From positions 213,627 through 277,626 of the forward strand of contig JAZTWI010000001.1 of NCBI GenBank assembly GCA_045635805.1: DNA of 64,000 bases, read 5' to 3'. The notes under the pieces are model-generated. The model was not told the origin of the DNA. It made no database searches and saw nothing but the letters and a program-made list of their open reading frames with translations. Shown here piece by piece: positions 31,036 through 55,566 of the stretch. The translations under genes and the position numbers were made by a program. The DNA is from Clostridia bacterium (GTDB lineage Bacteria; Bacillota; Clostridia; Christensenellales; UBA1242). Within the stretch, counting starts at the first letter, position 1. The number at the start of each line of letters is the position of its first letter.

Positions 31036-31062
31036 AAAAACACCTAAATATAGGTGTTTTTT
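31036..31062. terminator. bidirectional terminator
   Basis: ACACCTA-AATA-TAGGTGT flanked by A5 and T6. Overlaps the stop of the minus-strand orphan gene. Confidence 0.7.
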
Positions 31063-31513
31063 ATTTGTAATAATCTGCCATTTCTTCGTGTAATTTTTCA
31101 TTTACTAATGTCATTGTTTGTAGCCAATCTGGATTATATTCTTCACTAGGAATAGCGTATTCTTTAATCTCTGTATAAGAGTTGTCGTATCCGTGTGGTG
31201 GATAAAATCCTTTTCCAGCATACTTTTTAAGGATGCTAGTAGGTATACGATAAGTACATAGATAAACTTTACTTCTTTTTAATTCATTGAATATGTCCTG
31301 AGTGTCTTTTTTGCTATCTATGAAGTGTACATATCTTACACCTTCTACATATTTATGAGTGTTTCTTCTGGAGTCCTGTTCCCATGTAGAGCCAATGCCA
31401 CTAATATCGCCAGTTTCTATTGCTTTTCTTTCTCTTTCTGAGACAAATCTATATACTGTTTTTAGTTTGTCTTCTGTTAGATGCTTTTTGATTTTTTCAA
31501 ATATTCCAGCCAT
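31061..31513 (-). CDS. hypothetical protein (150 aa, orphan on opposite strand)
   Basis: A clean ORF whose ATG is preceded by AAGGAGA (reverse complement of tctcctt at 31521-31527). No TM segment and no assignable motif. Confidence 0.55.
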   Translation of the reverse strand: MAGIFEKIKKHLTEDKLKTVYRFVSERERKAIETGDISGIGSTWEQDSRRNTHKYVEGVRYVHFIDSKKDTQDIFNELKRSKVYLCTYRIPTSILKKYAGKGFYPPHGYDNSYTEIKEYAIPSEEYNPDWLQTMTLVNEKLHEEMADYYK

Positions 31514-34059: not shown

Positions 34060-36063
34060 ATGGCAGAAAAGAAAAATGGAGCAGTTAATAATAAACTTAT
34101 AGGAAGAGTAATTATCCAAGGGGATAGATACTTTTTTGAGTCTAAAGATTCTTGTGTTTATGATATTAAGCAGGATGAAATTGCTAAAAGACTAGCGTAT
34201 TCAGGTGAAATTTGTATTTTTGAATTAGATAAAGCACCTAAATTATCTGCTAGTATTACAGGTAGAATTACCGATATTATGGGTAAGGAAGGCGACCCTA
34301 TTCCAGAAGGCCTTGCCATTGCGACCATTTATAATCTTACACACCCATTTAATACAAACGCTGTACAACAGGCAGAGAGAATGCCTGACGAAGTAACAGA
34401 AGAACAGTGGAAGGGATATCGAGACCTAAGACATATTGACTTTGTTACTATCGACCCAGATACTGCTAAAGACTTTGATGATGCAGTACACGCTGAGAGA
34501 AACGAAGATGGCTCTTATACCTTAAGAGTTGCTATCGCTAACGTTGCTAATTATATAGAAGATGGAAGTCCACTATACTACGAGATTTATGGCAGGGGCA
34601 CTAGTGCGTATCTTGGTAATACAGTATACCCAATGCTACCTGAGAAGATATCTAATGTACTATGTTCTTTAAATGAAAAAACAGATAGAGTTGTTATGTG
34701 TACAACTGCTAGAATTGCACCAGATGGTAGGATTTTGGAATACTCTTTGGAGCCAGCAGTTATTCATAGCAGACACAGACTTACATATAAGGAAGCAGAC
34801 TTTATTAGATTCGGTCATTGTGACACAGTAGAAGACCAGAGCAGATTTGCAGGTCTTGCTGCTAGAACTGCTAAGGTTAAACCATCAATTGATGCATTAT
34901 TTGAAGTATCAGATATCCTAACTAGACAGAGAAAGGAAAGGGGCGCTCTAGATGTAACATCATTTAAGCCACACTTTGTACTAGATAAAACAGGAACATC
35001 TGTTGTAGATGTTGAAGAAGAACAGGCTGAGAAGTCTACTAAAGTTATCGAGTCTACAGCAATTCTTACTAATGAGATTAGTGGTGAGATTGCTAAAAGA
35101 CTAGGTATTCCTACAATGTATCGTAATCACTCATTACCAGATGAGATGTCTGCAGCCATTCTTAGTGAAAGACTAGCAGGATTTGGTCTAGGTCTTCCGC
35201 ATACTCCATCTGGAGAATCTTACTTAAGATTACTCAGGTCTGTTAAAGGTAAAAATATAGAAGAACCTGTAACATCACTTGTACTTAAATCATTTAAAGA
35301 AGCATACTATTCAGCTGAGAACGATGGTCACTTTGGTCTAGGTATCAAGGCAGACGAGTTCTATGATAGCTTTATGGAAGGCAGGGGAGAATTTGGTTCT
35401 AAGAAAGTTGCAAACGATGCTAGAATGAGATACTTCAAAGAAACAGGTAGTTATAATGGTCTAAAATTTACAGGAGACCTATCTCACACTGCATATGCTT
35501 ATTCTACATCTCCTATTAGAAACGCACCTAGTTACATTATTCAATCACAATTACTTGATTATATTATGACAGGAAATGTTAAATATAATCGTTCAACAAT
35601 TGCTGCATTTGCTGATAGATTCAGTGAAGCTGAGAGAAATGCTGCTGCAGCAGAAAAAGACTATAATGCATTACTTGGTTCAATCTGGGCTAAAGAGCAC
35701 TTAGGAGAATCTTTTGCAGGAAGGATTGTTAATTTCTATCCAGATGGAATGTTAATTAAGACCGATGAACCTAAGAATATTTCAATTACAGTACCATATG
35801 AAGAAGTAAGGTCAGTTAGACTAAATCAATCAATGATAGACAGTATGCTTATTAAATGTGGTATGAGAAGAAAGACACAACACAAAGGTCAAGCACCTAA
35901 GAAATCTCATAAGAATAAGTGTCCATTGCAATTAGGTGATACACTTGAAGATTTGATGATTTATGCTGCTACAACTAAACCACCTAGAATATTTGCTACA
36001 GAAGACCATGAGAAGTATATTCAAAGGGCACAAGAGAACGAAAACGGAAGGGGTATTCAATAG
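34060..36063 (+). CDS. rnr: RNase R / RNase II-family 3'-5' exoribonuclease (divergent)
   Basis: RNB motif I FVTIDPDTAKDFDDAVHAE, GHFGLG...STSPIR and a C-terminal S1-like segment. Motif IV is interrupted (see findings). Confidence 0.8.
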   Translation: MAEKKNGAVNNKLIGRVIIQGDRYFFESKDSCVYDIKQDEIAKRLAYSGEICIFELDKAPKLSASITGRITDIMGKEGDPIPEGLAIATIYNLTHPFNTNAVQQAERMPDEVTEEQWKGYRDLRHIDFVTIDPDTAKDFDDAVHAERNEDGSYTLRVAIANVANYIEDGSPLYYEIYGRGTSAYLGNTVYPMLPEKISNVLCSLNEKTDRVVMCTTARIAPDGRILEYSLEPAVIHSRHRLTYKEADFIRFGHCDTVEDQSRFAGLAARTAKVKPSIDALFEVSDILTRQRKERGALDVTSFKPHFVLDKTGTSVVDVEEEQAEKSTKVIESTAILTNEISGEIAKRLGIPTMYRNHSLPDEMSAAILSERLAGFGLGLPHTPSGESYLRLLRSVKGKNIEEPVTSLVLKSFKEAYYSAENDGHFGLGIKADEFYDSFMEGRGEFGSKKVANDARMRYFKETGSYNGLKFTGDLSHTAYAYSTSPIRNAPSYIIQSQLLDYIMTGNVKYNRSTIAAFADRFSEAERNAAAAEKDYNALLGSIWAKEHLGESFAGRIVNFYPDGMLIKTDEPKNISITVPYEEVRSVRLNQSMIDSMLIKCGMRRKTQHKGQAPKKSHKNKCPLQLGDTLEDLMIYAATTKPPRIFATEDHEKYIQRAQENENGRGIQ

Positions 36064-36146: not shown

Positions 36147-36175
36147 TTTACAATTTTGCATCATTTTGATATACT
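36147..36175 (+). promoter_or_regulatory. sigma-A-type promoter of rho-like gene
   Basis: TTTACA-17 nt-TATACT. Confidence 0.45.
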
Positions 36176-36210: not shown

Positions 36211-37434
36211 ATGAACGAATTTAGTATCGAACAGATAGAAAAATTAAGAATTCATGAATTAAGAGACTATGCTAGAACGGTTGGTGTTTCTAGTCCAACA
36301 ACATTAAAGAAAGACGAACTCATCACTAAAATTAGTGAAGTTTTTGCTAGTAAAAATATTGCACCTGAGAAGTCTCAGCAGAATGATGAATTGGATTTCT
36401 TTGAGCTTCTTACTAGTGATAAATCACATATTTTCAATAAGCTACTAGAGAGAGCATCAAAAGGTGAGAAGAAGCTAAACAAACCTGCTATTGTAAATAG
36501 TTCTACAATGCCTACCGAAAAAGTAAAAGTAAAGAAGGTTACTAGTTCTGCTAGTACCCCTTATGAAATACCAACTTCTCCTATGTTTAGTTGGGGCGTT
36601 GCTCAAGATGAAGCGCCATATTATAGTGGAGTTGAACAAGCAGAAGGATATCTAGATATTCACCCAGACGGCTATGGAATTGTTCGTGTTCAGAGTTATA
36701 TTCCAGATGCAGAAGATGTTTATATTGCAGAATCGCTACTTAAGAAAAAGAACTTAAAGAAAGGTTCTTATGTAAGTGGTAAGGTAAAGGCAATAGTTAT
36801 AGGTAAACCTAAAATTATGTATGATATCGAATATTATGATATGGAAGCTTATAAGGCAAAATATAATTATGAAGAATTACCATATGCTCCTATAGGTGAA
36901 GAATTATATTTAGAGAAAAATAAATTCTCAGTTAGAAAGGGTGAGAGACTGTATTGCAGGGGACTAGATATCGCTGACTGTGTTAGCGTTGCCACCGAAC
37001 TTGCAGAAGAGAATAGTTGTTATACTAAGGTTCTAAATTTCCGTGCAAGACCAGAAGAAAATTACGAATCAAACCCAAAAGTTGAAATCGTAAATTGTCC
37101 CTTTAATAAGACGGAAATTGAGAGTTTGAATAGTATTGAATTAGTGATAGAAAGACTAAAAAGAGAGATAGAAATAGGCAGACCACAGGTATTGTTCTTA
37201 TATGGCTTTAGTGATATTGTTAGAGCATTTAATGTAGCAATCGAAGGCTTCTATGATTTTTCAAAAGTTAATGCTAAGGCTATTAATAAAATAAAAAATA
37301 TTCTCTATACAGCAAAAAACACAACTAATAAACTATATGTATCTATAGTGTGTGTAGACAAATATGGTATACCTAGTGACTTAGAGAATATAATGAATCT
37401 AGAGTTCTTATCTCTATTTAATTCAGTTAGATAA
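36211..37434 (+). CDS. Rho-like protein with degenerate ATPase core (Rho_N + Rho RNA-binding domain retained, Walker A/B lost, C-terminus truncated)
   Basis: Hand alignment to E. coli and B. subtilis Rho. LRIHELRDYARTVGV..LKKDELITKI aligns to Rho_N. GYLDIHPDGYGIVRV...EDVYIAESLLKKKNLKKGSYVSGKV aligns to the CSD. VRKGERLYCRGLDIADC replaces GQRGLIVAPPKAGKT. FRARPEEN replaces IDERPEEV. Confidence 0.6.
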   Translation: MNEFSIEQIEKLRIHELRDYARTVGVSSPTTLKKDELITKISEVFASKNIAPEKSQQNDELDFFELLTSDKSHIFNKLLERASKGEKKLNKPAIVNSSTMPTEKVKVKKVTSSASTPYEIPTSPMFSWGVAQDEAPYYSGVEQAEGYLDIHPDGYGIVRVQSYIPDAEDVYIAESLLKKKNLKKGSYVSGKVKAIVIGKPKIMYDIEYYDMEAYKAKYNYEELPYAPIGEELYLEKNKFSVRKGERLYCRGLDIADCVSVATELAEENSCYTKVLNFRARPEENYESNPKVEIVNCPFNKTEIESLNSIELVIERLKREIEIGRPQVLFLYGFSDIVRAFNVAIEGFYDFSKVNAKAINKIKNILYTAKNTTNKLYVSIVCVDKYGIPSDLENIMNLEFLSLFNSVR

Positions 37435-37468
37435 TAAAAAAATCCCTAAAATATTTAGGGATTTTTTT
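37435..37468. terminator. bidirectional terminator between rho-like gene and giant gene
   Basis: ATCCCTAAA-ATA-TTTAGGGAT flanked by A8 and T7. Confidence 0.8.
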
Positions 37469-37489: not shown

Positions 37490-40400
37490 TTATCTGTATC
37501 TACCTTTCTTTCTAATTAAGAAGAATAGTACAACTGCTACAACTATACCGATAGCAAATGCAATAATTACTATCTTAGTTGTGCTATTTAGTGGGTCAAC
37601 CTTAATGAATTTATATGTGCTAAGTACTGTTCCGTCATCGGAAATTACTTTAACTACAAATTCACCGGCTTTTTCAAGTGTTACGGTATTAACAACAATT
37701 TCGCTATTTTTATCGATTGTTGCGTATGTTACACCATTAATTTCTACTCTAGCAGCACCTACTTGTTCATAGATTAAACCTGGGTTATAGTATAATTCAA
37801 TAGTTTCTCTAGACTCAATACCTGACTCTATATTAGATTGAATTACAGGTTTCTCATCATTAATCCATACTTTAAATGTAAATGGAATATATTGATAGGT
37901 GATAGTATTATAAGATTTTAACGTGATTTCGTAACTACTATTTTGTTGTTCGTTAAATGCTAACCAAATCAAACTAGAAGCATATTTGTTACCACTATCA
38001 GCAATTCCATTAGGAGATTTTAGGAATTCTTGTGTAACGTCATATCTTTCGTTCATTACAATTTTAGTAACATTTTCAATTACAAAGTTAGAGCCTTTTG
38101 AAATATTGAAACTATTTCTAGCAATGTCTTCTCTAATAATAGCGAAGCTATAAGAAGAAGATATTTCTTGGTTTGTAACTGTACTACTGCTAAGTTCTGT
38201 AGTAGCTACTATATCGATAGTGTAGTATCCTTGTTCTGTTAGATTTAGAACGCCTTTTTCGTTAGTCACTGTGATTTGTACGCCGTTCTTATAAACAGAG
38301 ATACCAAGGGACTCTGTATCGTATAGTGTTAGTCCATCGAGTTCAGAGATAATCTTTAACTCAATAGGCTCATTAAATACTTGGTTATTAATAGGAGATT
38401 CGCCATTAACTTCATATAGAATCTGGTTGATTAGATATATGTATAGTAGGCTAGTATTATTCTTAGCGGTTGGTAGGGTAGAGAATATATGTTGTCTACC
38501 AGCTAGGTCTCTAACTGCGAATTGATGTAGACCTACGTTTTTAACTGTAAAGGTGTATGATACTCCACCTTCGCTTACATTAAGAACATCTAATACAATA
38601 GTTTCTATTAATTCGTTATTATAGTATCTCTCAAGGTATAATGTATTACCTTCGATATATTGATAATCAGGACTTGTTGCAGATAGTGTAAATGTTATTT
38701 TCATACCATTTGCAGCAACGCTTTGAACAACGTTTTCGTTCTCAACTAGTTTGTTATCAAGTGTTCCGATATCTACAACTTTTGTATCTAGTAGGTGAGT
38801 AGTTGTAGCAGGCAAGAAGTGAATAATTACATATCTATAAACATAACTATCGGCGCTCTGTACATTAGAGTATACTTGATATTTTACAACATATTCATAT
38901 TGAGTACCAAGGCCGTCAGTATCAATATATTCATAAGATACTATGTCAGCATTTAAGTTTAAGTTACTATTAACTCTAACATCTAGGTATATACCTTTCT
39001 GTTTATTGATTCCCATGATTTGAGATAGTGTAATACCATCATCATAGATAACATCTTTAGTAATAGGGTTTCCACTCTCTAAGTCAACATAATTGAAATA
39101 ATTATCTGTAATAAAGTAGTGGAATTCAGTTTTGTTATCTGTGCCATTAACAGTTGTGTAATTAGATGGGTCTAGTTTCTTCTGTGTTTTGCCATTATTT
39201 GAGATAGCATAAACGGCATACATTGTGATTTCTCCGTCACCTCTAGTAAATGAAATTTCTTCACTTTCTCTACCAAGAGAGTTAATTGCTTTTGCAGTGT
39301 ATTCGCCAGGTAGGGTAACAATGTAATCACTATTTACTCTATATGTTTGAGTTCTAGTAATATTATTTTCTGTATATCTTCTAACAAGTTCTATTTGAGT
39401 ACCAAAATCAATTCTTTCAGAAGTGAGTATAGTGTCCCAACTTAGAACTAATTGGAAGTCTTCTGTTAGATTTAAGTGGGTATTCGTATCAAGTGTTACG
39501 CCCTTCATATTTCTTACTGTAACTTTTTGGACAGCTGTATATATTGCCATCTTATAATCATAAACAAATATATTGTTATTGTTTAGCTCATCGCCCCAAG
39601 TGTAGTCATTGGCAGTACTAGCAAGAATTGTTTTGATTTCGTACTTGCTAAGTGCTCTAGTCTTTGACACACCTACAAATGTGATGGTTGTGATATTATT
39701 TGTTGTTATTACAGATTGAATACCAAATTGTCTTAATGCTTCTTGAGAATATTTACTATTGCTACCATAGATTTCTTCTCCAGAACAATATTGATTTGTG
39801 TCTGCATTTTCACCTGTAAATCTAATAAATACATCATATACTGATGAATCATATGTGTAACTAAACATTTCTCCGGTGTAGGTGAAGTTGTCAGAATGTT
39901 TAGCGTAACTGCCATAATATCTAATGCTACCACCAGTTTGTGAACTGCTAATACCAAATTCGTGGAAATATATAGAAGTTCTGCCGAAATTGTCGGTAAT
40001 TTCAAATCTATATACGCCCTTAGTTAAGATATATCTAGCGCCTTTGGTTTTAAATTCATTACTGTGTTTAGTGAATTGATTACCTTCGCTATCTACGTCT
40101 TTTTCTAACCATTCCTTATTGAATTGAGATGCTTTTACTTTTGTGATATAAGTTGAGCCTCTCATAGAAGGAATATACATTTCAAAGTTTACTGCTTTAT
40201 TTGTAAATACAGGAACAATCTCGCTACCTGCTACAGAGTAGGTGATAATGTAGTTATTTAATATCTTTGTATCGTAGGAAGCAGGTATTCCTAGTCTGTC
40301 TACGATAGATAAGTCTACAATGTATCCGTATTCAGAATAGTATGGACTATTCTTATCTGAAATGATTTCGTTATAATCAACAATTTTTTCGTTTATAAGT

Positions 40401-43400
40401 TCTAAGAAGTCGTGAATATATGTATCTGTTGTTACATCTGATACAATCTCAAGTGGATTATTATTTGCATCTGTTAGTGTAAGTTCTTTAGTGTTAGGAT
40501 TGTAGTATAAGTACAATTTTTCATTTAATTTACCAGATTGAACATCAATAATTGCCTTAATGAATAAGTCACTAGTTGTGTAATTAATAAAGTCAAATGA
40601 TATACCACCAACTGATGCGATAGAGCCTTTGTATGTTACAGAACCAGTCTTGAATTCTGCACCATTGTATGCCTGGTATTTATAGTTTACGCCATCATAG
40701 GTTGCGTCGTGAATATAGATACCATATACTCTGTAGTTACCAGCTTCGTCGGTTTCTAAGATTTCGTAATATTCACCAGTCTTAACAATTCCTTGTGTCA
40801 ACATATGATTTACTGACATCTCATTATCGATGTATGGACAGTAATAATATTGATTGTATTGGAATGAAGTAGGGTAGTATCTATTATGTGAGTCGTTGAA
40901 TAAGATTGATGTTGCATTGCTAGGAACGAATTGGTTATGCTCTCCTCTTAACTGAGCATCGTTATAAATAATATAATCGTCTGGAGTGTAAGAGAATTTA
41001 TAATTACTAATATCTGTTCCAAGTGGTCTAATATAGAAACCATTTACACTATCTAGTTTATCAACACTCTTAAATGTAAATGTGCTATTTGCTCTAGAGT
41101 CAACAGCGAAGAAATATTTTTCTAGGTCACTACTATAGAACTCTGTTTTCTCATCGTAAGTAAAGTTGTAATATGGGGAATATTCATCGAATAACTGCTC
41201 ATATTCTTTACCTGTAGTTGTTACATTTCCTTTGTAAGTATATCTATCTAAGTTCATAAGTTGAACTAAGTTATACTTAGGTTTAATTCTGTCAACTGTG
41301 ATTTCGTATGTTGTGCTGTAGTAAGAAACTGTCTGTCCTTCTAGTTCTGCTTGATAGTTATCTTCTAGTCCAACATAATGAATCTTTATGTAGTAATTAG
41401 CTAGGTCAACGTTTTCGTTACTATCAAGTAATCTAAAGTTAGAGTAGTTCTCTTTTTCATCAGTATTTAAGATGTCATCTAAGTTATTATCAAAGATGAT
41501 AATAGCGTAGTATGTTGTATCTCCTATAACGTTACAGATAAATGAACCATCTTGTCTAGCCTGGCTAGGGACTAGCTTGGTTGTATGATTCTTAACAACA
41601 CCTGTAGTTGTATCTAAATGTCTATTGAATAGTAGGTTATCTTCACTTACATCATTTTGATATACTTGGATATTATTAATATCAATTTTTGCCATATACT
41701 CATCATTTGTGATTGAGAATAAGAATACAAGGGTTTCATTATTAGTGCTAAGTAGAGAAACTGTAGAACCTGTAACACCTGTAACAGGTGACTGGTTATC
41801 TGATAATGATTTTAATTGTCCTGCTTCTTCACTCAAATAATGAGAGATTAGGGCATATGTACCAGCAAGTTGTGAGCCATTGTCTGTTGTAGTAATTGGT
41901 ATACTAGAAGAAGTTCCACCATTATCTTCATCATAATTTATTTCACCATAATATTTACCATACATTTCTCCTAGTGGGGCAGTATGTTTAATATTAAATG
42001 TAATTTGTAAATTATTAGGTTGGTGATTTAATGCTTTTACTTCTAAGTCACCTTTGTCATTGGCTTCTCTTAGGATATGACCAGATTGGTCGCTAAGTGT
42101 AATGTAATATGAATTTAGTGAATCTCCATAGAAGAATGAGTTTTCATTGAGTCTTGAGTCTACTGAATTCATATTTTGATACTCAGTAATGTACTTCTTC
42201 ATAAGTGTACTATTATACTTAGCATCGGCGTTTACATTAGTTTCATCTATAATCTTTGTTCCATTTGCGCCCTTATTTAGAACTAAGTCTAATTTAAAGA
42301 TATTCTCGTATAACGCTTTGTTTAGTAGAGACTTACTAACAGCGTCTGCAAGTTTAGTTTCTTTAGAAAGTAGGGCAATGTATGAGTTATAGAAGTCTGC
42401 AAAGTTATATTTGTCAGTAGTTAATGTGAATTTGGTTTCTACCTTATTAGTAGAGAATAGGTTACTACTTGTAAAGCTAGAGTTACTATAACCTGTATTA
42501 TTTGATGTTTGGTTATTTTGAATATTATTAGCAGTAATTAATTTTTGATTTTCAGTATCTTTGTAATTACTACCAAGTAAGAATTCGATGTCGCTACCAA
42601 TATTATATAAGCTACTAGCGGCATTGTCGTTAACAGGTACAGAGATGATTCCGTTTCTATCAACGTAGTATATACGATATATAATTCTAGTATCAGTGCC
42701 TAGGACTTCTGGAGCGATACCTTTGTCATATTCTCTCTTGAAGATGTATAGACCTTCTTGAGTAATTATTTCTCCGGTTGCAGTGTCAACAGAAGGATTA
42801 ATGACAGATGAGAATACTCTCTCAGTTAGTTCATCTTGTGGCTCGGTGTAGTCTGATAAGCTCTCGGTATAGATATGTTTAGGATTTCCTTGAGTATCAG
42901 AAATTACCGCAGAACCCTTCATATCATATGGATAACTGATAGAGTGGTGTCTATTACCATCTTCATCAAATATCTTCATATCGATTACTTTTGTCTCAGT
43001 TCCGTTTGAGAAAGTAATTCTAAGATATGTTGCAGAGTCGTCTGCTGTAGGCTCTACATACTCAACATCTGTGATAGCATAGTTCTCATAGAAACTAGCA
43101 TTATAAGCGTAATATGTGTAGGTTAGACTGTAATCAGGAATTACTTTTTGGTCTTCTTTAGTATTTTCTAGAGAAGAGATATATAGTTTAGCTGCAGCAT
43201 AAGATTTAGCAGCTTCTCCTGTGAGTCCTGTTGCTTTTGCAAGAGTGTCACTATTTTTAAATGTTGCATAAGATAGTGTCTGTGTCTTGTCTAAGTTCAT
43301 CCATAAGTCGCCTAGGCTATTATTACCAAGGTCGTCAAATATAGCATAGTAATATAAACCTGTACCACTTACACCACTAAGTGCAGTATTTAAATCTCCA

Positions 43401-46400
43401 TAGATAGTTGTAATATACTCTCTAGCCACATCTCCATAGAAGTCTAGGGTAGTGGATAATTGGGTTTGTTGTTTATTATAGATATAGTTATCAAATATTA
43501 TACCACTAGCATCTACAGCAATCTTACCATTTTGGTCGTAAGTAGGTAGTTTAATTGTAGAATCATCTACTGTGTATGTAAATACAGATGAGGCTACTTC
43601 TCTTGTTAACTCTGCGTCTATAAATAACTTATATGTCTTTGTGTTGCCTTGTGTGTCAGTTTTTACATAATAAACTGTATCACCGATAAGAACTGTTGAA
43701 CCTGTTACATAGTAGAATCCTGCATTTGTTCCACTAGTTACTTGAATTCTAGGTGAGATAGGTGTATTAGGGAAGAAATAGTATTTATTTACATCACTAA
43801 TTGCGGAAACCTTACCTTCTTCGTCTGTAATCTGTGCTTTTTGAATTGGAATTAAGATATAATAATCGTCACCAACTTTTTCAAGTTTAGCATTATTAAA
43901 TTTTCCACCTGTTGCAGAATTAATATAAGATAATGCTTCTTTTAATCTATTAACAGGATTTTCTGCAGTGTATTCAATTTTTGTGTATTCAGTAATGCTT
44001 TCTTCGTATAATGCTAGGTCTGTAGCATTAACTTTGATAGCTTTGTAATCTCCCCAAGTAACTGTTGTAACGTCACTAACGATATTATTCTTGTTATTTG
44101 GTTTAGGGTCTACTATTGACCTAGGAGAAGTATTATCAAAGTAAATTACATATCTACATTCATTACCAGCTTCGTCTTTCATTCTAAATAGGTACATACA
44201 GCTAGTTGAATTTGTAAAGTAATTACCATTAGCAACTCTATTGGTTGTTTCATAGTTGTAATTATATAATTTACCAATCTCTATCTCTGGGTCTGTGCCG
44301 AGTAAGGCAAAATTAGTAGTAATACCAGATTTATTATTTGAGAATTGTAGTAGGTCATCATAGTCAGATGTTCTATTAAATGTAATCTTGTGCCAGTATG
44401 TAAAGATTTGTGCTCCACTCGCTTTTGGTGAATATCTAAATGTGAAGTCTGTATTTACTATCTGTTGATTAGCTTTTAGTTGTAATTCGTCATTAACAAC
44501 ATAGAAACCTTGGTCATTTAGCATTACAGGAACAACTTTCATTCCAGCAATTTTCTTGTTATCAGAAGTGTACTTTTGGGTAACGCTAGGTTTGGTTCCA
44601 TCTGTATTCTCTGAACCATAGTAAATTGTGATAGAGTAGTGACCATCTAGGTTCCAATCTGGTCTGTCTCCAGGTAGTCTAAATGTTACATAATATCTAG
44701 ATTTATCTTCACTCTTAGTAAATGTAGAGATTGTTCTAACATATGTTTCATTTGTTGCTCCTGACATAACAATAGGTAACATTCCATCAGGGTTCTCTCC
44801 ATCAAATCTAGCACGGAAAGGTATGTCTGTTGAGATTCCTTCAAAGTTCTCTTTGTTTACTTCGATATAAATATTATTTTGGAAGTATGTTGGTACTAAC
44901 CAAGATATTCTAACAACTTTATTAGTATAACTAGATGGTAGTAGGGTTTCATATTCAGGATTGCCTTCGCCGTCTACTTCTCCTGTTTCTACATCAAAAT
45001 ATAGTTTAGGAGAGTTATTATCAACGACGAATACAAATACTTGATAGAACTGTGTACCAGCAGCTTCGCTATCTAGTTTGCCTAGTTCTTTGTAATAAGA
45101 ATATGTATATTTGATTATTACTTCGTAGTAACCATCATCTTTACAATAGATATCTTTAAAGTATGTGTCGTGGTTATCGTATATTTCTAGGTTCTCTGGT
45201 TTTAAATCTAAGTTTCCATAGATATCTTTGTAAGTAGAGTATTTATAGATTTTAGATTCACTTACTTTACCTGTATATAGTAGGGTAGAGTAATTTTTCC
45301 AGAATACTTGAGTGTCTGTAACGATAACTTGGCTTAGTGGTATTTGACCTGTGCCATTACCAACAAATGATGCACTGAAACCTGCACTAGGTGTAGATGT
45401 TGCAAGTTTGTTATTTGCTATATTGTTAGTTTTTAGATATAGGCTAGTGTAATCAGAGATAAAGTTCTTTTTCTCTTTTGCGTCGATTTGCTCTAACACT
45501 GCATATCCACTATCTGTCTCAGCATCTTCTTTACTAAAGTAAGAGATTGAACCAAATATAGATAGTTTATCAGCACCTAAAACATGGGTAGCTGTTCTTT
45601 TATTGATTACAGGAATAAATCTAGTATCTGAACCTGAACCATATTGTGAATCTTGAGTTTCAATATTTTTAATTAACTGATGGAAATATGCATCTCCAGC
45701 AACTGAGTTACTAATATTAGTAGAATTTACATTTTTAGAATATTCAGTTGAACTACCAGCTAGGAAGTAATTGATAATAGATTTATCATCATATTTGTAA
45801 TTGTAGTAAGAAGATGACTGTTTTGATTCGTGTGGGGTAGTGGTGTATTCAACTTCACCTAGGGTGTATTTAACAGATAATTTGATTGTCTTACCATCTG
45901 GAGAAATATCTATATTATATTCAGTTTCTAGTATACCGGTAGAACCAAAGTCGGTAGATGTTATTTGATTAATATCAAATGTATCTGTTCCAACTTTTAC
46001 TTTGTTTGTTGAAGAGTCATATTCATAATTCTTAGCATTGATAGTAACTTTACCTTCTGCATCTAAATAACCAGAGAAAATTACATATAATTTATTGCTA
46101 TTGCTATTAGAACCTTCTTCGCTCTGTGTGTGGTCGATAGGTTCTTTTATTACTTCTGTATCGTATGGAATAGTGTAGTCATATGGAACTAGTCTATTGG
46201 TGCTAACAGCGTTGCTAGAAGAATATCTAGTACCAACTACTGTACCTATAGCATTGTTGTACCATGGACAAACATAGTTATACTCAAATGTATAAACACC
46301 TAGTTTTTCAAAAGCCATTTCGTAAGTGTACTCAATAGCAAGGGTAGCAGCGTTTAATAATCTCTTTAGGTCTTTTGCATTTTTACCTGTTACGCTATAA

Positions 46401-48328
46401 GAGTATTCAACAGAGTATGTTTTATCTTTTAATTCACCACTAGTTATGGTTAGGGTATCGTTTGCGTAATCATACTCAAATGTGAAATCTTCTGCTGGTG
46501 TTGTATGAGTAGCTTCCTGATATAGAGTAGCAGTCCTAGTATTTGGGTTTTCTCTATTTGCAATGAAAAGATAATATGTTTTATCTGAAGTTGCATTTAC
46601 AAAGTAGGTTGTGTCTTCACCAATTGTTTGAGATTGAATAGGGTATGTACCACTAAATACTTTATCTTTAAATTCGATTTTATTGTCTTCTTCGTTATAA
46701 GAATAATCAAATTCACTGGCTGTATTTACTTCTTTTTGGAAGTCCTTGTCTCTATATAATTTTTCGGTATTATCTTTGTCAAAGTAGAAAACGATAGTAT
46801 CTGTGATAGTGACAACTTTTGAAACAGTATCGGTATTTTGTGGTTTTTGTTTATAGATAGAATATAGACTAGTATCTTGTAATTTTGCTATATTTGAGTC
46901 TATCCATCTGTACTCATCAAATACTTCTGTTACATATGTTTTAGTAGTGAATACTGAATCTTCTTGGAATTCAGAAACTTCTTCAATAATAGTAGTTAAT
47001 TTATATTCAAATGTAAATTTGCCAGACTCTAGTAGATTAACAATATTCTCATCATCGTCTACGTTATTATAAGAGTAAACTACGTAGTCTTGGTCTGTGC
47101 TTGAGAAGTATAGATATTCAAGTACGTTGCCATTGTTTGAGTAGTTAGTTAAGATATAAACATCTTTTAGATAAATATCATTATTGTAGAATGTTATCTT
47201 ACCATACTGTTGATATGCAGAATTTACAGTGTAAACACCTGTTGTGAATACAGAAGTAATGTTTTCTGTAATCTCATTGTTTTGTCTAGTATATGCTAGA
47301 TTATATCTACTAGGTGCGTATAAGATAGAAGGCTTATCTCCTGCAAAATTATAGAAATACTCATTGATTGTATTCTTATTAGATGCTCCTAGTGTTGCAC
47401 CTATAATTTCAGGATAATCAGCATAATCTGCACTGTCTAGCATATAGAATGTATATACAAATGACTCGTCAGCTGTAGTTGAGCCGTCAGCTAAAATTCT
47501 TTGGAATGTAAATGTAAATTTATATTGACCAGAAGGATTAACTACTTTGTAGGTAGGGGAGTTCTGTTCTCCTGTAAGTTTTGCAGTAACATTATTTAAA
47601 TCAAAATATTGATACCAATAATAACTAGATTTTGGATTGCCGTCATCATCTGTATATGGAGAATGTATTTCTGGGTCGAGATTTAGAATATGGAAACCTT
47701 CAGCAGTTCTTAGTTCTCCTGTAACAGTTAAGTCAGCTAGTTTAGTCTTGCCATCTTCTTCGGTAGCAGGGGAACCAAATGAAAGGTATAAGTTCTCGAC
47801 ATTATATGTAGATGAAGTTGGGTTCTTATAGTTATCAGAAAGAATAACGAAATCATTATCGTCTATTTCATCGTAAAAAATAGGCTCAAGTTCTTCGTCA
47901 GTAGTTCTAAAGTGAGTAATATTACCAGGAATATAACCACCCAAACCAGAAGGTCTCTCTCTTTCTATGTACTGCATCAATTCTGCATTATTAACCATTA
48001 GAGATACTTCTCCTAAATCGGAAGAATACTCAGCTCCGGCTGTTGTTGCAGTATATAGCCTACTATTAGAGTGGCTTAGGTAACTATACTCGTAAGATTT
48101 ACTATCCGTAGTAAGTCCGTAACCTTCTGCTATTCTAACCTTAGTCTTTGCAGAATTAAATGAGATATTGTACTCATTCATTATCTGGGCTTTTGTTAGG
48201 GCTTTAGCCTGATAGTTGTTTACAGGGGAAATAAATCCTAGTGCAATAACTAATGCCACTAGAACTAGGGTTAGGCTTCCTAACATTGAATTTAATGCAT
48301 TTTTCCAACTAAATCTTTTATTTTTCAT
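37490..48328 (-). CDS. giant cell-surface protein (3,612 aa): signal peptide, huge beta-rich ectodomain, C-terminal TM anchor
   Basis: ATG 48328 sits 9 nt after GGAG (track start 48343 is 5 codons upstream). N-terminus is MKNKRFSW..LTLVLVALVIALGFI..YQAKA|L. C-terminus is IVIIAFAIGIVVAVVLFFLIRKKGRYR. A GxYxhxhxDxxGN motif typical of PKD/HYR-type Ig folds recurs through the body. Confidence 0.85.
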   Translation of the reverse strand: MKNKRFSWKNALNSMLGSLTLVLVALVIALGFISPVNNYQAKALTKAQIMNEYNISFNSAKTKVRIAEGYGLTTDSKSYEYSYLSHSNSRLYTATTAGAEYSSDLGEVSLMVNNAELMQYIERERPSGLGGYIPGNITHFRTTDEELEPIFYDEIDDNDFVILSDNYKNPTSSTYNVENLYLSFGSPATEEDGKTKLADLTVTGELRTAEGFHILNLDPEIHSPYTDDDGNPKSSYYWYQYFDLNNVTAKLTGEQNSPTYKVVNPSGQYKFTFTFQRILADGSTTADESFVYTFYMLDSADYADYPEIIGATLGASNKNTINEYFYNFAGDKPSILYAPSRYNLAYTRQNNEITENITSVFTTGVYTVNSAYQQYGKITFYNNDIYLKDVYILTNYSNNGNVLEYLYFSSTDQDYVVYSYNNVDDDENIVNLLESGKFTFEYKLTTIIEEVSEFQEDSVFTTKTYVTEVFDEYRWIDSNIAKLQDTSLYSIYKQKPQNTDTVSKVVTITDTIVFYFDKDNTEKLYRDKDFQKEVNTASEFDYSYNEEDNKIEFKDKVFSGTYPIQSQTIGEDTTYFVNATSDKTYYLFIANRENPNTRTATLYQEATHTTPAEDFTFEYDYANDTLTITSGELKDKTYSVEYSYSVTGKNAKDLKRLLNAATLAIEYTYEMAFEKLGVYTFEYNYVCPWYNNAIGTVVGTRYSSSNAVSTNRLVPYDYTIPYDTEVIKEPIDHTQSEEGSNSNSNKLYVIFSGYLDAEGKVTINAKNYEYDSSTNKVKVGTDTFDINQITSTDFGSTGILETEYNIDISPDGKTIKLSVKYTLGEVEYTTTPHESKQSSSYYNYKYDDKSIINYFLAGSSTEYSKNVNSTNISNSVAGDAYFHQLIKNIETQDSQYGSGSDTRFIPVINKRTATHVLGADKLSIFGSISYFSKEDAETDSGYAVLEQIDAKEKKNFISDYTSLYLKTNNIANNKLATSTPSAGFSASFVGNGTGQIPLSQVIVTDTQVFWKNYSTLLYTGKVSESKIYKYSTYKDIYGNLDLKPENLEIYDNHDTYFKDIYCKDDGYYEVIIKYTYSYYKELGKLDSEAAGTQFYQVFVFVVDNNSPKLYFDVETGEVDGEGNPEYETLLPSSYTNKVVRISWLVPTYFQNNIYIEVNKENFEGISTDIPFRARFDGENPDGMLPIVMSGATNETYVRTISTFTKSEDKSRYYVTFRLPGDRPDWNLDGHYSITIYYGSENTDGTKPSVTQKYTSDNKKIAGMKVVPVMLNDQGFYVVNDELQLKANQQIVNTDFTFRYSPKASGAQIFTYWHKITFNRTSDYDDLLQFSNNKSGITTNFALLGTDPEIEIGKLYNYNYETTNRVANGNYFTNSTSCMYLFRMKDEAGNECRYVIYFDNTSPRSIVDPKPNNKNNIVSDVTTVTWGDYKAIKVNATDLALYEESITEYTKIEYTAENPVNRLKEALSYINSATGGKFNNAKLEKVGDDYYILIPIQKAQITDEEGKVSAISDVNKYYFFPNTPISPRIQVTSGTNAGFYYVTGSTVLIGDTVYYVKTDTQGNTKTYKLFIDAELTREVASSVFTYTVDDSTIKLPTYDQNGKIAVDASGIIFDNYIYNKQQTQLSTTLDFYGDVAREYITTIYGDLNTALSGVSGTGLYYYAIFDDLGNNSLGDLWMNLDKTQTLSYATFKNSDTLAKATGLTGEAAKSYAAAKLYISSLENTKEDQKVIPDYSLTYTYYAYNASFYENYAITDVEYVEPTADDSATYLRITFSNGTETKVIDMKIFDEDGNRHHSISYPYDMKGSAVISDTQGNPKHIYTESLSDYTEPQDELTERVFSSVINPSVDTATGEIITQEGLYIFKREYDKGIAPEVLGTDTRIIYRIYYVDRNGIISVPVNDNAASSLYNIGSDIEFLLGSNYKDTENQKLITANNIQNNQTSNNTGYSNSSFTSSNLFSTNKVETKFTLTTDKYNFADFYNSYIALLSKETKLADAVSKSLLNKALYENIFKLDLVLNKGANGTKIIDETNVNADAKYNSTLMKKYITEYQNMNSVDSRLNENSFFYGDSLNSYYITLSDQSGHILREANDKGDLEVKALNHQPNNLQITFNIKHTAPLGEMYGKYYGEINYDEDNGGTSSSIPITTTDNGSQLAGTYALISHYLSEEAGQLKSLSDNQSPVTGVTGSTVSLLSTNNETLVFLFSITNDEYMAKIDINNIQVYQNDVSEDNLLFNRHLDTTTGVVKNHTTKLVPSQARQDGSFICNVIGDTTYYAIIIFDNNLDDILNTDEKENYSNFRLLDSNENVDLANYYIKIHYVGLEDNYQAELEGQTVSYYSTTYEITVDRIKPKYNLVQLMNLDRYTYKGNVTTTGKEYEQLFDEYSPYYNFTYDEKTEFYSSDLEKYFFAVDSRANSTFTFKSVDKLDSVNGFYIRPLGTDISNYKFSYTPDDYIIYNDAQLRGEHNQFVPSNATSILFNDSHNRYYPTSFQYNQYYYCPYIDNEMSVNHMLTQGIVKTGEYYEILETDEAGNYRVYGIYIHDATYDGVNYKYQAYNGAEFKTGSVTYKGSIASVGGISFDFINYTTSDLFIKAIIDVQSGKLNEKLYLYYNPNTKELTLTDANNNPLEIVSDVTTDTYIHDFLELINEKIVDYNEIISDKNSPYYSEYGYIVDLSIVDRLGIPASYDTKILNNYIITYSVAGSEIVPVFTNKAVNFEMYIPSMRGSTYITKVKASQFNKEWLEKDVDSEGNQFTKHSNEFKTKGARYILTKGVYRFEITDNFGRTSIYFHEFGISSSQTGGSIRYYGSYAKHSDNFTYTGEMFSYTYDSSVYDVFIRFTGENADTNQYCSGEEIYGSNSKYSQEALRQFGIQSVITTNNITTITFVGVSKTRALSKYEIKTILASTANDYTWGDELNNNNIFVYDYKMAIYTAVQKVTVRNMKGVTLDTNTHLNLTEDFQLVLSWDTILTSERIDFGTQIELVRRYTENNITRTQTYRVNSDYIVTLPGEYTAKAINSLGRESEEISFTRGDGEITMYAVYAISNNGKTQKKLDPSNYTTVNGTDNKTEFHYFITDNYFNYVDLESGNPITKDVIYDDGITLSQIMGINKQKGIYLDVRVNSNLNLNADIVSYEYIDTDGLGTQYEYVVKYQVYSNVQSADSYVYRYVIIHFLPATTTHLLDTKVVDIGTLDNKLVENENVVQSVAANGMKITFTLSATSPDYQYIEGNTLYLERYYNNELIETIVLDVLNVSEGGVSYTFTVKNVGLHQFAVRDLAGRQHIFSTLPTAKNNTSLLYIYLINQILYEVNGESPINNQVFNEPIELKIISELDGLTLYDTESLGISVYKNGVQITVTNEKGVLNLTEQGYYTIDIVATTELSSSTVTNQEISSSYSFAIIREDIARNSFNISKGSNFVIENVTKIVMNERYDVTQEFLKSPNGIADSGNKYASSLIWLAFNEQQNSSYEITLKSYNTITYQYIPFTFKVWINDEKPVIQSNIESGIESRETIELYYNPGLIYEQVGAARVEINGVTYATIDKNSEIVVNTVTLEKAGEFVVKVISDDGTVLSTYKFIKVDPLNSTTKIVIIAFAIGIVVAVVLFFLIRKKGRYR

Positions 48329-48397
48329 TACTAAAATCTCCATTTTTCTTCAAGTGTCGTAAAATAAATTAATTTAATTCAAAATTTCTACTAAATA

Positions 48398-48614: not shown

Positions 48615-48689
48615 GGTCCCATGGTCAAGAGGTTAAGACACCACCCTTTCACGGTGGTAACAGGGGTTCGATTCCCCTTGGGACTACCA
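48615..48689 (+). tRNA. tRNA-Glu (anticodon UUC), CCA encoded
   Basis: GGUCCCAUGGUCAAGAGGUUAAGACACCACCCUUUCACGGUGGUAACAGGGGUUCGAUUCCCCUUGGGACUACCA. Anticodon arm is CCACC-CUUUCAC-GGUGG. Confidence 0.9.
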
Positions 48690-48937: not shown

Positions 48938-49014
48938 TGGTAGCGGCGGTGGGACTCGAACCTACGACCTTTCGGGTATGAACCGAATGCTATAGCCAAC
49001 TAAGCTACGCCGCC
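48938..49014 (-). tRNA. tRNA-Met (CAU), elongator type (Ile2-lysidine identity not excluded)
   Basis: Reverse complement GGCGGCGUAGCUUAGUUGGCUAUAGCAUUCGGUUCAUACCCGAAAGGUCGUAGGUUCGAGUCCCACCGCCGCUACCA. There is one A-C mismatch in the T stem. Confidence 0.8.
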
Positions 49015-49162: not shown

Positions 49163-49240
49163 TGGTAGCGGGGGTGGGATTCGAACCACACGACCTTCGG
49201 GTTATGAGCCCGACGAGCGACCGAGCTGCTCCTCCCCGCG
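49163..49240 (-). tRNA. initiator tRNA-fMet (CAU), CCA encoded
   Basis: CGCGGGG... start gives a C1-U72 mismatch. The anticodon stem has three G-C pairs (UCGGG-CUCAUAA-CCCGA). It is 78 nt long, and the T stem GUG(U)GG/CCCAC carries an extra U. Confidence 0.85.
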
Positions 49241-51630: not shown

Positions 51631-51660
51631 AAAAGACTGTGAAAATTCACAGTCTTTTTT
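51631..51660. terminator. bidirectional terminator
   Basis: AAGACTGTGAA-AA-TTCACAGTCTT flanked by an A run and a T run. Confidence 0.8.
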
Positions 51661-55482: not shown

Positions 55483-55566
55483 AATTAAAGTACTATTATT
55501 ATTATATATTACTAAATAATTTTTATCATTTAAGTTATAATAAAAATACTAGATGGAGAAATGGAA

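Follow-up and report, generated by a model that had tools for sequence, protein, structure and literature searches.

Rho is regarded as a ring-shaped translocase obligately driven by ATP. The gene at positions 36211 to 37434 of the 64,000-nucleotide stretch of Clostridia DNA analysed here (the window) raises the question of what becomes of a Rho homologue whose ATPase site has gone, and whether such a gene is a relic or encodes a working protein. The first-pass annotation, made from the letters alone, had described the product as a truncated Rho homologue without a P-loop; it is called pseudo-Rho below. The gene and the parts of its product are as follows.

36211-37434, + strand: coding sequence of the P-loop-less Rho homologue, 407 aa plus stop codon
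36223-36351, + strand: Rho_N helix bundle (aa 5-47; PF07498), aligned to E. coli Rho residues 2-40
36388-36462, + strand: helical motif LDFFxLLTSxNSxIxxxLL (aa 60-84), inside the insert, from the family alignment
36463-36624, + strand: variable linker, predicted to be disordered (aa 85-138; pLDDT <50, mean pairwise identity 0.23)
36631-36837, + strand: OB/cold-shock-like domain (CSD), equivalent of the primary RNA-binding site of Rho (aa 141-209; PF07497)
36838-36939, + strand: connector from the CSD to the RecA-like domain (aa 210-243), aligned with deletions to E. coli residues ~117-170
36940-37431, + strand: degenerate RecA-like domain (aa 244-407), from the AF2 model

The reading frame closes with TAA at 37432-37434. 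The ATG at 36211 is taken as the true start because all homologues begin with MN-EF/EY at this codon, the N-terminus being conserved across 76 clusters.

Likeness to Rho families is highly significant, and Pfam, PRK09376, PDB, hhalign and Foldseek agree on it. Rho_N and the OB/CSD, both recognized by eye in the first-pass annotation, lie above their Pfam thresholds: Rho_RNA_bind (PF07497) scores 52.1 bits against a cut-off of 27 (aa 145-194) and Rho_N (PF07498) 28.4 bits against 24.9 (aa 9-47). At E values up to 10, the Pfam scan returned these two families and two weak OB matches, with no ATPase family. The NCBIfam Rho equivalog PRK09376 matches aa 5-382 (E 4.8e-25), with scores against the Rho equivalogs (TIGR00767 / PRK09376) below their curated cut-offs (88.2 bits versus 315 and 84.3 versus 509), and a PDB sequence search retrieved Thermotoga maritima Rho (3l0o; E 2.7e-14, aa 141-398). 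Profile-profile alignment by hhalign to canonical Rho gave a probability of 99.87% (E 1.1e-31) over 364 colinear columns, spanning E. coli residue 2 through F335, and homology reaches E. coli residue ~343. Most 10-residue blocks of the CSD and of the RecA-like part have a pLDDT above 90 in the AF2 model. When this model was searched against the PDB with Foldseek, the 50 matches listed were without exception Rho (E 1e-20 to 1e-15), so the best structural match is Rho and the protomer-like fold is common to both proteins; superposition on Rho protomers covers ~300 columns at an rmsd of ~4 A, at an identity to Rho of ~20%. The colinearity over the whole protein that had been claimed from a hand alignment is thereby borne out by hhalign and Foldseek, and pseudo-Rho descends from a clostridial-type Rho, with Rho_N, insert, OB/CSD, connector and RecA-like core in colinear order.

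Rho_N is the best-conserved part of the protein (consensus RIHELRDYAR..GVSSPTT.KK.EL; mean pairwise identity 0.65), with invariant columns at R13-R18, A21, G25, P29-T31, K34 and L37. It is followed by an insert, as in the "type 2" Rho that a recent survey describes for many Gram-positives (PMC11347177). The insert had been called a low-complexity stretch of ~100 aa; its presence between Rho_N and the CSD stands (~93 aa, aa 48-140), but part of it is a conserved helical motif. In this LDFF motif, D62, F63 and L67 are invariant (mean identity 0.46), and the model places helices at residues 63-68 and 72-83 with moderate pLDDT. The motif is specific to the window family; in its place, canonical clostridial Rho has a GRP/GRPP motif, and so do the other degenerate forms.

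The CSD is modelled as five strands with pLDDT about 90. Several residues of the primary site are kept (E. coli numbering): F62 (as Y), R66 and D78, while the Y80 position is aromatic in 25 of 29 sequences. Others have undergone conserved replacement, namely F64 by I, E108 by K, R109 by P and Y110 by K or R. In Rho, F64, E108 and Y110 belong to the primary site, where they stack on pyrimidines or select them. Since all three are replaced, Rho-like rut recognition is unlikely, and the ligand could be of another kind, for example single-stranded DNA or a protein. The connector that follows is less conserved (mean identity 0.32) and has the highest dN/dS of all segments (0.22-0.46).

The RecA-like domain is well folded in the model (five strands plus helices, pLDDT about 90), and the nucleotide-binding motifs are absent from it. 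Three regions correspond to catalytic segments of Rho.

36940-36984, + strand: remnant of the Walker A region, GERLYCRGLDIADCV (aa 244-258), standing for GQRGLIVAPPKAGKTMLL in the hhalign alignment
37036-37059, + strand: NFRARPEE, equivalent of LIDERPEE in the alignments (LNFRARPEEN is aa 275-284)
37189-37233, + strand: VLFLYGFSDIVRAFN (aa 327-341), equivalent of VIILLDSITRLARAYN in the alignments

In the remnant of Walker A, G244, R246 and Y248 are invariant. Where the P-loop (PPKAGKT) should follow strand 1, the profile alignment has a deletion of 6 residues; the model here passes from a strand (246-250) through a 3-residue turn into helix A (254-267). No GK[ST] tripeptide occurs anywhere in the window protein, in keeping with the reported absence of GxxxxGK[ST], nor at the P-loop position in any of 76 relatives. 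The GKS or GKT of some relatives was considered as a hidden Walker A and rejected, as it sits in the loop that joins helix C to strand 4, outside the P-loop. In the second region, the equivalent of Asp210 is K or R and that of the catalytic Glu211 is Ala in 27 of 29 family members, while R/K-P-E-E is retained and P281 and E282 are invariant. In the third, the Walker B Asp265 is replaced by Tyr in 28 of 29 members and the Arg269 position is Asp or Glu in all 29; the equivalents of R272 and N275 are retained. The replacement residues at Glu211 and Asp265 are themselves conserved across the family. All three motif replacements quoted by the first-pass annotation (GERLYCRGLDIADCV, LNFRARPEEN and VLFLYGFSDIVRAFN) were found where it had placed them, and neither profile-profile alignment nor the structure model revealed an intact Walker A or B concealed by misalignment.

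The protein ends at "GNMEL", 8 residues past the equivalent of E. coli F335. This end point had been recognized correctly, but the missing part was overestimated: ~76 C-terminal residues of E. coli Rho (~344-419), among them the Arg finger R366, are absent rather than ~90. The nucleotide site has been dismantled: the P-loop, the catalytic Glu and the Walker B Asp are lost, the Arg-valve partner is acidic, and truncation has removed the Arg finger together with the C-terminal subdomain. Pseudo-Rho therefore cannot be a translocase driven by ATP.

Homologues fall into 76 protein clusters (defined at 90% identity) that are 36-94% identical. Their lengths lie around 390-425 aa, the single exception being a 247-aa fragment, and 28 aligned relatives share the same end point. 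One JGI member is named "transcription termination factor Rho"; others are hypothetical. Genes at 13 species-level reference-genome loci are all intact, as are three close-relative genes, whose translations match the query proteins exactly, so the survey of relatives yielded no frameshifts or stops. Against a 94%-identical orthologue, dN/dS is 0.059 overall, 0.019 in the RecA-like domain and 0 in Rho_N; over all comparisons, it ranges from 0.06 to 0.09 for the whole gene and from 0.02 to 0.06 for the degenerate RecA-like domain. The RNase R-like gene next to it has a comparable value (0.043). The earlier impression of a maintained rather than decaying gene is upheld by the intact state of every family gene examined and by these values; the RecA-like domain, well folded according to its model, is under strong purifying selection. 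Such conservation under strong selection argues for a working motor-less Rho, not a dead gene.

The window family does not stand alone: degenerate Rho homologues from metagenomic Clostridia form a broader graded series, of which it is one end, and this series continues to still shorter forms with greA nearby. Dozens of intermediate forms, all metagenomic, and more than 100 clusters of shorter relatives were found, and the distance from GQR to DERPE shrinks along the series (36 residues in canonical Rho, then 36, 34/33 and 33/32, and 31 in the window family). The shorter relatives include Rho_N-CSD proteins of Clostridia (331-404 aa; alignment A2, L015-L025) that are homologous to the window family over their full length (hhalign 99.3%, E 1.3e-20, 311 columns) and likewise lack the P-loop. 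Their C-terminal domain is reduced further than in the window family, and Rho_N is followed by a GRP motif rather than LDFF. They are annotated as "Rho termination factor N-terminal domain-containing protein". Their neighbourhood also differs: the short-form gene and greA share a strand, with the former two genes upstream, and belong to a strictly conserved block in which a gene for a ~490-aa protein precedes it and greA, holB and a yaaT/PSP1-type gene (the last assigned by eye) follow.

In the window, the surroundings of pseudo-Rho are core chromosomal (valS, pta-ackA, plsX, smc, ftsY, ffh, rimM, trmD, a 50S ribosome-binding GTPase gene and rnhB). It is a single-copy chromosomal gene amid housekeeping genes, and the lineage of gut Clostridia that carries it has a low GC content (33%); public records label this lineage Christensenellales or Christensenella. 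The adjacent features are as follows.

34060-36063, + strand: RNase R/II-family 3'-5' exoribonuclease gene, 147 nt upstream (Pfam RNB, 2.5e-73)
36147-36175, + strand: promoter-like site TTTACA-17 nt-TATACT with an extended -10 TG (consensus match, 10/12)
37436-37468, both strands: bidirectional intrinsic-terminator-like hairpin A7-TCCCTAAA-loop-TTTAGGGA-T7 (RNAfold)
37490-48343, - strand: convergent surface-protein gene (3617 aa, N-terminal signal/TM and C-terminal TM anchor)

A defence system or mobile element was considered and rejected: PADLOC defence models gave zero matches for pseudo-Rho or its RNB neighbour, and the surroundings are those of a core chromosome. A Pfam match to S1CSD-TOTE-2 is weak (E 0.007, below cut-off) and reflects OB-fold likeness only. 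The exoribonuclease scores 360 bits against TIGR02063 (RNase_R), below the cut-off of 598, and aligns from model position 136. Its gene lies directly upstream in the window and at L001, L003, L007, L008, L011, L012, L029 and L030, and it is not in the neighbourhood at L004, L005, L006, L010 and L013; counted over species-level loci with enough flanking sequence, it is upstream in 6 of 11. At L004, L005, L006 and L013, a DUF308 protein is encoded upstream and a tadA-like deaminase downstream. Homologues of the giant surface-protein gene are convergent downstream at L001, L002, L003, L008, L010, L011, L012, L027, L029 and L030. Because the neighbourhood is conserved in only part of the family, it supports functional hypotheses weakly.

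The gene had been credited with its own promoter and a strong terminator. Both a promoter-like site and a hairpin are present, but the number of promoter-consensus sites in the region is not above shuffle expectation (10 versus 7.8 in shuffled sequence) and a consensus terminator scan did not call the hairpin at 37436-37468. The promoter-like site is the top + strand site of the region and lies 36 nt before the start codon. The hairpin, common to the pseudo-Rho gene and the convergent giant gene, has an AT-rich stem of 7-8 bp bordered by A7 and T7. RNAfold gives it a dG of -19.6 kcal/mol for the - strand; the value for the + strand, -21.9 kcal/mol, refers to a longer predicted helix in which the flanking A7/T7 runs are paired too. 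Rfam identified four tRNAs only in the window and no known RNA element in the 5' region of the gene. Pseudo-Rho appears to have its own putative promoter and terminator, and therefore no operon points to a specific pathway.

The reading that we favour, and consider reasonably probable, is that pseudo-Rho is a Rho-derived pseudo-ATPase that binds RNA without translocating and acts in transcription or RNA decay. Going by its domains, it would bind RNA, with single-stranded RNA still held through the highly conserved module of Rho_N and CSD; the Rho_RNA_bind match above threshold and the conserved equivalents of R66, D78 and Y80 favour retention of this module. A conserved basic surface takes the place of the pyrimidine pocket, so its RNA specificity has probably changed. 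Being unable to translocate, pseudo-Rho would be a static factor bound to RNA or to the transcription complex, and the remodelled RecA-like domain would serve as an assembly or partner-binding module. Control of transcription elongation or termination, or RNA decay at 3' ends, would be the likeliest arena. The short forms near greA and the position of the window family beside an RNase R-like gene are in favour of this link, but neither association is universal.

The neighbouring exoribonuclease suggests a more specific role, in which pseudo-Rho would be an RNA-binding accessory subunit of this RNase R/II-family enzyme, delivering or selecting its substrates. The RNB gene keeps its place immediately upstream, in the same orientation, down to protein identities of only about 40%, and the RNase R-like protein has no N-terminal HTH/CSD1 region, so a partner that supplies a CSD is conceivable. 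A precedent is RHON1 of Arabidopsis chloroplasts, in which Rho_N binds RNA and the protein cooperates with and supports the ribonuclease RNase E (PMC3458557). Like pseudo-Rho, RHON1 is a Rho_N protein without Rho motor activity, but the analogy is functional: its Rho_N is C-terminal and the only motif in common, and its abstract describes a protein specific to vascular plants, with neither a Rho CSD nor a RecA-like domain (PMC3458557). However, the RNB gene is missing near five family loci, a terminator-like hairpin follows it and a promoter-like site precedes the pseudo-Rho gene, the short-form relatives adjoin no RNase gene, and, within a single bacterial order, synteny may last without the genes being functionally linked. 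An adaptor role of this kind is accordingly judged unlikely. Equally doubtful is a role as regulator of a coexisting canonical Rho, either as a poison subunit in its rings or as a competitor for its sites on RNA or RNA polymerase, damping termination. Damped Rho-dependent termination could allow transcription of very long neighbouring genes, and in most lineages a 10.8-kb ORF converges on the pseudo-Rho gene. In E. coli, point mutants of Rho that are ATPase-dead have a dominant-negative effect. Segments of canonical Rho are also kept (GxR of strand 1, R-P-E-E, the ELVxERxKRExE helix and xRAFN) and are compatible with a preserved protomer-protomer surface. Against this, the ring interface is built in part from the missing ~76 residues, which also include the Arg finger, and heteromer formation is doubtful at about 20% identity to Rho. 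Moreover, tblastn with canonical Rho found no canonical rho in the 64-kb window or the retrieved family loci, and two Rho-like forms per genome were seen in 0 of 26 reference loci by a pattern search that canonical Rho mostly escapes.

Two further readings would make the loss of the motor incomplete or the gene dead. Residual NTPase or translocase activity through a non-canonical nucleotide site could be proposed from the GKS/GKT tripeptide of some relatives and from the conserved basic/acidic cluster around R-P-E-E and R338. This is very improbable, as the tripeptide lies in REFExGKSN without GxxxxGK[ST] context and is absent in the window protein, while the P-loop is deleted and the Glu, the Walker B Asp, the Arg finger and the adenine-binding C-terminal region are gone. 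In a single sequence, motif loss and C-terminal truncation resemble early decay, and one might have suspected a rho pseudogene in decay, or else an artefact of assembly or of a frameshift, with the C-terminal part elsewhere. This reading is refuted to the point of negligible probability by equal lengths in all but one fragment among the 76 clusters and by an omega of 0.06 that is low even in the degenerate RecA-like domain. In addition, tblastn with canonical Rho detected no C-terminal remnant downstream of the gene, and a terminator and a convergent gene follow directly after the stop codon.

Under the favoured reading, a Rho-derived pseudo-ATPase, the graded series could be interpreted further. 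A tentative proposal, possible rather than likely, is that pseudo-Rho is the only Rho homologue of a small-genome gut Clostridia lineage and the end-point of a stepwise "pseudo-enzymisation" in which the scaffold was kept for a role that needs no ATP, exerted on RNA polymerase or on the nascent RNA. Stages of such a path are seen among metagenomic forms: the P-loop is lost first, Walker B next, then the catalytic Glu with the C-terminus, and the short greA-linked forms come last. The motor-less Rho might then act as a passive terminator, an anti-terminator or an RNA-decay adaptor. If this is true, the RNA- and RNAP-binding architecture of Rho would have a function separable from translocation. 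The graded series offers a rare, readable trajectory from an essential motor protein to a pseudo-enzyme. The whole family keeps the Rho protomer architecture under strong purifying selection despite losing every catalytic residue, and it is a natural experiment that separates the binding and scaffold functions of Rho from its motor. This separation bears on the debate between "stand-by" and "catch-up" models, in which the question is whether Rho acts on RNA polymerase without translocating.

By domain matches alone, pseudo-Rho fits the "Rho-like" class of Moreira et al. (2024, NAR 52:8979; PMC11347177), which comprises proteins with Rho_N and the RNA-binding domain detected and the ATPase domain undetected; in some species, among them Conexibacter woesei and Baekduia soli, that study notes Rho-like sequences only. 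That class is defined by a missing HMM match, whereas the RecA-like domain of pseudo-Rho persists as a folded, selected and motif-less domain. The comparative surveys consulted require a detected ATPase domain for a "functional Rho" and set other proteins aside, and in the literature found, such Rho-like sequences are listed in passing only. Uncultured gut Clostridia are probably outside the RefSeq set of Moreira et al. "Rho present" and "Rho absent" calls in gut Clostridia MAGs may mislead. A second, shorter Rho-related family, NF041509 (paralog_Rho2, short-form Rho), matches pseudo-Rho weakly in its ATPase region (47 bits versus a cut-off of 628, aa 270-379). By its NCBI name and by the survey's description of Group B / Type 4, this family lacks the N-terminal domain, and under the survey's definition of functional Rho, Type 4 retains the ATPase domain (PMC11347177); pseudo-Rho, with its N-terminal domain and without ATPase motifs, has the opposite pattern.

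The single plus-strand ORF at 36211-37434 encodes what is, by sequence comparison, a homologue of Rho over its whole length. The frame could open at GTG 36196 or ATG 36211 and ends at the stop codon 37432-37434. In the family alignment the N termini of all homologues coincide with MN-EF/EY, whose coding begins at ATG 36211, so the product has 407 aa, as the first-pass annotation had it. Pfam matches are to Rho_N at 28.4 bits (threshold, 24.9) and to Rho_RNA_bind at 52.1 bits (threshold, 27), and the same scan of the protein matched no ATPase family. NCBIfam Rho equivalog models align over residues 5-382, scoring 84-88 bits versus cut-offs of 315 and 509, and phmmer against PDB sequences retrieves Rho of Thermotoga maritima, Mycobacterium tuberculosis, Escherichia coli, and others (E values from 2.7e-14 to ~1e-10).

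Profile comparison with hhalign (29 family members versus 10 canonical Rho sequences) gave a probability of 99.87% and an E value of 1.1e-31 over 364 colinear columns, placing E. coli Rho residues 2-335 on family positions 1-399. Eight of the canonical sequences came from database searches, one was translated from locus L014, and one was the E. coli sequence, which agrees with the PDB search alignment at residues 51-164 and 200-335. AlphaFold2, run with the family alignment, gave a model of mean pLDDT 78.5; in the OB and alpha/beta domains most 10-residue blocks exceed 90, and residues 49-60 and 85-138 are disordered. Rho chains account for all 50 of the Foldseek matches listed against the PDB (E values of 7.6e-20 to 4e-15), superposing over ~300 columns at ~4 Å.

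Every element of the nucleotide site has gone from this protein, leaving a folded Rho derivative under selection. Motifs were compared using the phmmer-PDB and hhalign alignments and column counts over 29 family members:

Walker A, E. coli GRGQRGLIVAPPKAGKTMLLQ: RKGERLYCRGLD------IADC in the window protein, a six-residue deletion
D210 of E. coli Rho: Lys or Arg in the family
Catalytic E211: Ala in 27 of 29 members
Walker B D265: Tyr in 28 of 29 members
R269: Glu or Asp in 29 of 29 members
Residues ~344-419, including Arg finger R366: missing in the family

In the model, strand 246-250 meets helix 254-267 through a three-residue turn, and thus no P-loop is predicted to be left. The protein ends eight residues past the F335 equivalent, and tblastn with canonical Rho downstream of the gene found no C-terminal remnant. 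The positions kept in the RecA-like domain are conserved across the family, namely G244, R246, Y248, N276, R/K-P281-E282-E/D, F333, R338, and N341, together with an ELVxERxKRExE helix. The first-pass annotation, which had proposed colinear Rho homology with Rho_N and the primary RNA-binding domain present, loss of the catalytic motifs, absence of GxxxxGK[ST], and C-terminal truncation, is confirmed.

Cryptic NTPase activity is so improbable as to be effectively excluded, as all nucleotide site elements are missing. A GKS/GKT tripeptide recurs in P0009, P0010, P0022, P0039, and ~20 other family members and could pass for Walker A in motif scans. It belongs to a REFExGK[ST]N loop between helix C and strand 4, with neither Walker A context nor GxxxxGK[ST] spacing; the loop corresponds to E. 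coli VEHKKD rather than the P-loop and was rejected as a hidden Walker A. The window protein has no such tripeptide.

The family is broad and intact. Among 5.8 billion protein clusters, a word-indexed search returned 76 at 36-94% identity; all are covered over the full length (~390-425 aa) but one, a 247-aa fragment from a 941-bp contig. Clusters with names are "hypothetical protein [Clostridiales bacterium]". In a scan that took a single genome for each GTDB species, 13 loci were found, with intact genes. Record titles of the carrier metagenome-assembled genomes (MAGs) read Clostridia, Clostridiales, Christensenellales, or "uncultured Christensenella", and legible source names indicate animal guts (roe deer caecum and Hadza samples). 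Nei-Gojobori dN/dS was 0.059 (dS, 0.57) against a 94%-identical orthologue and 0.090 against an 85%-identical one. Within the former comparison, Rho_N shows no amino acid change (dN/dS, 0), the CSD has a value of 0.08, and the degenerate RecA-like domain has 0.019; that of the neighboring RNase R-like gene was 0.043. Mean pairwise identity in the family is 0.65 for Rho_N, 0.52 for the CSD, 0.50 for the RecA-like domain, and 0.23 for the linker. Intact full-length relatives and low dN/dS rule out a pseudogene, and gene decay is effectively excluded. The earlier view of a maintained pseudo-Rho is supported: the orthologues are intact and under strong selection, and the protein is an ATPase-less, folded, selected Rho derivative.

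Degenerate Rho homologues form, from their motif content, a graded series. When the family profile was run exhaustively as an HMM against 1.84 billion representatives, it matched 51 proteins at an E value of ≤1e-30, 894 at ≤1e-10, and 3379 at ≤1e-3, among them the intermediates (P numbers) below:

Canonical Rho: PPKAGKT and DERPEE
P0233: P-loop alone spoiled (SPKTDTA); DERPED and DSITRLTRAYN retained
P0225, P0236, P0242, P0251, and P0273 (445-474 aa): P-loop and Walker B lost; DERPED and full-length C terminus retained
P0197, P0200, and P0204 (366-413 aa): catalytic Glu and C terminus also lost; NxDAKPEE, with the end truncated as in the window family
Window family (~390-425 aa): P-loop, catalytic Glu, Walker B, and C terminus lost

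From canonical Rho to the window family, the GQR arginine and the position of the DERPE aspartate draw closer, with spacings of 36, 36, 34/33, 33/32, and 31 residues. The intermediates are all metagenomic, and one JGI member is named "transcription termination factor Rho". Two shorter families (331-404 aa; e.g., L016:9938-10942 and L021:9980-11125) were found with a Rho_N peptide pattern in loci L015-L025 from other genomes. They consist of Rho_N, a CSD-like domain, and a reduced alpha/beta domain without a P-loop, and their homology to the window family extends along the entire protein (hhalign, 99.3%; E value, 1.3e-20). The 334-aa L016 member, used as a query, gave 107 clusters, all from MAGs, the best annotation being "Rho termination factor N-terminal domain-containing protein".

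The OB domain probably still binds a nucleic acid with different specificity, judging from the residues kept and replaced. Equivalents of E. coli F62 (as Tyr), R66, and D78 show little or no variation, and that of Y80 is aromatic in 25 of 29 members. Conserved replacements (F64 by Ile, E108 by Lys, R109 by Pro, and Y110 by Lys/Arg) affect positions assigned to the pyrimidine pocket in the primary site of Rho. The insert carries a conserved, family-specific helical motif, LDFFxLLTSxNSxI (aa 60-84; nt 36388-36462), which may be a partner-binding peptide. At this position, following Rho_N, canonical clostridial Rho and all other degenerate forms have an AT-hook-like GRP/GRPP motif.

The following features flank the gene:

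34060-36063, plus strand: RNase R/II family exoribonuclease (Pfam RNB, 2.5e-73), directly upstream
36147-36175, plus strand: sigma-70-like site TTTACA-17-TATACT with TG, the region's best match to consensus
37436-37468, both strands: A7-stem-loop-T7 hairpin (RNAfold, -21.9 kcal/mol on plus and -19.6 on minus)
37490-48343, minus strand: giant ORF (3617 aa), with a signal/TM segment at the N terminus and a TM anchor at the C terminus

A 147-nt spacer separates pseudo-Rho from the preceding gene, whose end carries a weak hairpin within the spacer. The hairpin at 37436-37468, shared with the convergent 10.8-kb gene, folds equally well on both strands and is therefore a likely bidirectional intrinsic terminator, as predicted from folding; a consensus terminator scan did not call it. 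The pseudo-Rho gene looks monocistronic. The RNase R-like protein scores 360 bits on TIGR02063 (equivalog cut-off, 598), aligning only from model position 136; Pfam reported the RNB domain alone, and the N-terminal HTH/CSD1 part of RNase R appears to be absent. Its gene lies directly upstream on the same strand in the window and in L001, L003, L007, L008, L011, L012, L029, and L030 and is missing beside pseudo-Rho in L004, L005, L006, L010, and L013. A DUF308 membrane protein is encoded upstream in L005 and L013, and in L004 and L013 the gene downstream is for a tadA-like deaminase. A giant surface protein gene is convergent downstream in ten loci. Both associations are suggestive but not universal.

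We consider it reasonably probable that Rho_N and the CSD would bind RNA or another single-stranded nucleic acid without translocation, the remodelled RecA-like domain serving as an assembly or partner-binding module. A role as adaptor of the RNase R-like enzyme is unlikely, despite a precedent in RHON1, a Rho_N protein described as binding RNA and supporting RNase E (PMC3458557). Action on the elongation complex is suggested by linkage of the distant short forms to greA, in a strictly conserved block of a Zn-ribbon acidic protein, an ~490-aa protein, the short-form gene, a small antisense ORF, greA, holB, and yaaT/PSP1 (names assigned by eye from translations). ATPase-dead point mutants of E. 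coli Rho are dominant negative, and pseudo-Rho might damp or compete with a putative coexisting canonical Rho, although we give this little weight. Binding without translocation remains our preferred reading.

By domain content, the protein belongs to an already listed "Rho-like" class. A 2024 survey of Rho diversity takes the RNA-binding and ATPase domains as its criterion for functional Rho and sets aside "Rho-like" sequences with one domain only or with an N-terminal domain plus the RNA-binding one (421 species), covering them solely in its supplement; two Actinomycetota have only such sequences (PMC11347177). No description of the window family, the graded series, or a folded, strongly selected, motif-less RecA-like domain was found in the main text of that survey or in a 2025 review of Rho-dependent termination, in which inactive Rho paralogues did not come up in a term search (PMC12360218). 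The cyanobacterial "Rho-like" protein of a 2026 metagenome study is different, with Rho_N only (PMC13613805), and the NCBIfam "paralog_Rho2" short form is also distinct from the window protein (47 bits versus 628).

The window (GC content, 32.6%) is ordinary Firmicute core chromosome, with valS, pta-ackA, plsX, smc, ftsY, ffh, rimM, trmD, and rnhB and genes for a 50S ribosome-binding GTPase, an inositol monophosphatase, a 4-alpha-glucanotransferase, and the RNase R-like enzyme. Rfam detected four tRNAs and no other element across the window. Further features are as follows:

1747-1820, 48615-48686, 48941-49014, and 49166-49240: tRNA genes
31061-31513 (minus), 50445-51623 (plus), and 51659-52711 (minus): three ORFs (150-392 aa) that matched neither Pfam nor NCBIfam
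53259-53843: M23 peptidase/SpoIIQ-like protein
55534-64000, plus strand: giant ORF of at least 2822 stop-free codons with a lipoprotein-type signal (LLICSIMGLWACGS), running past the window end
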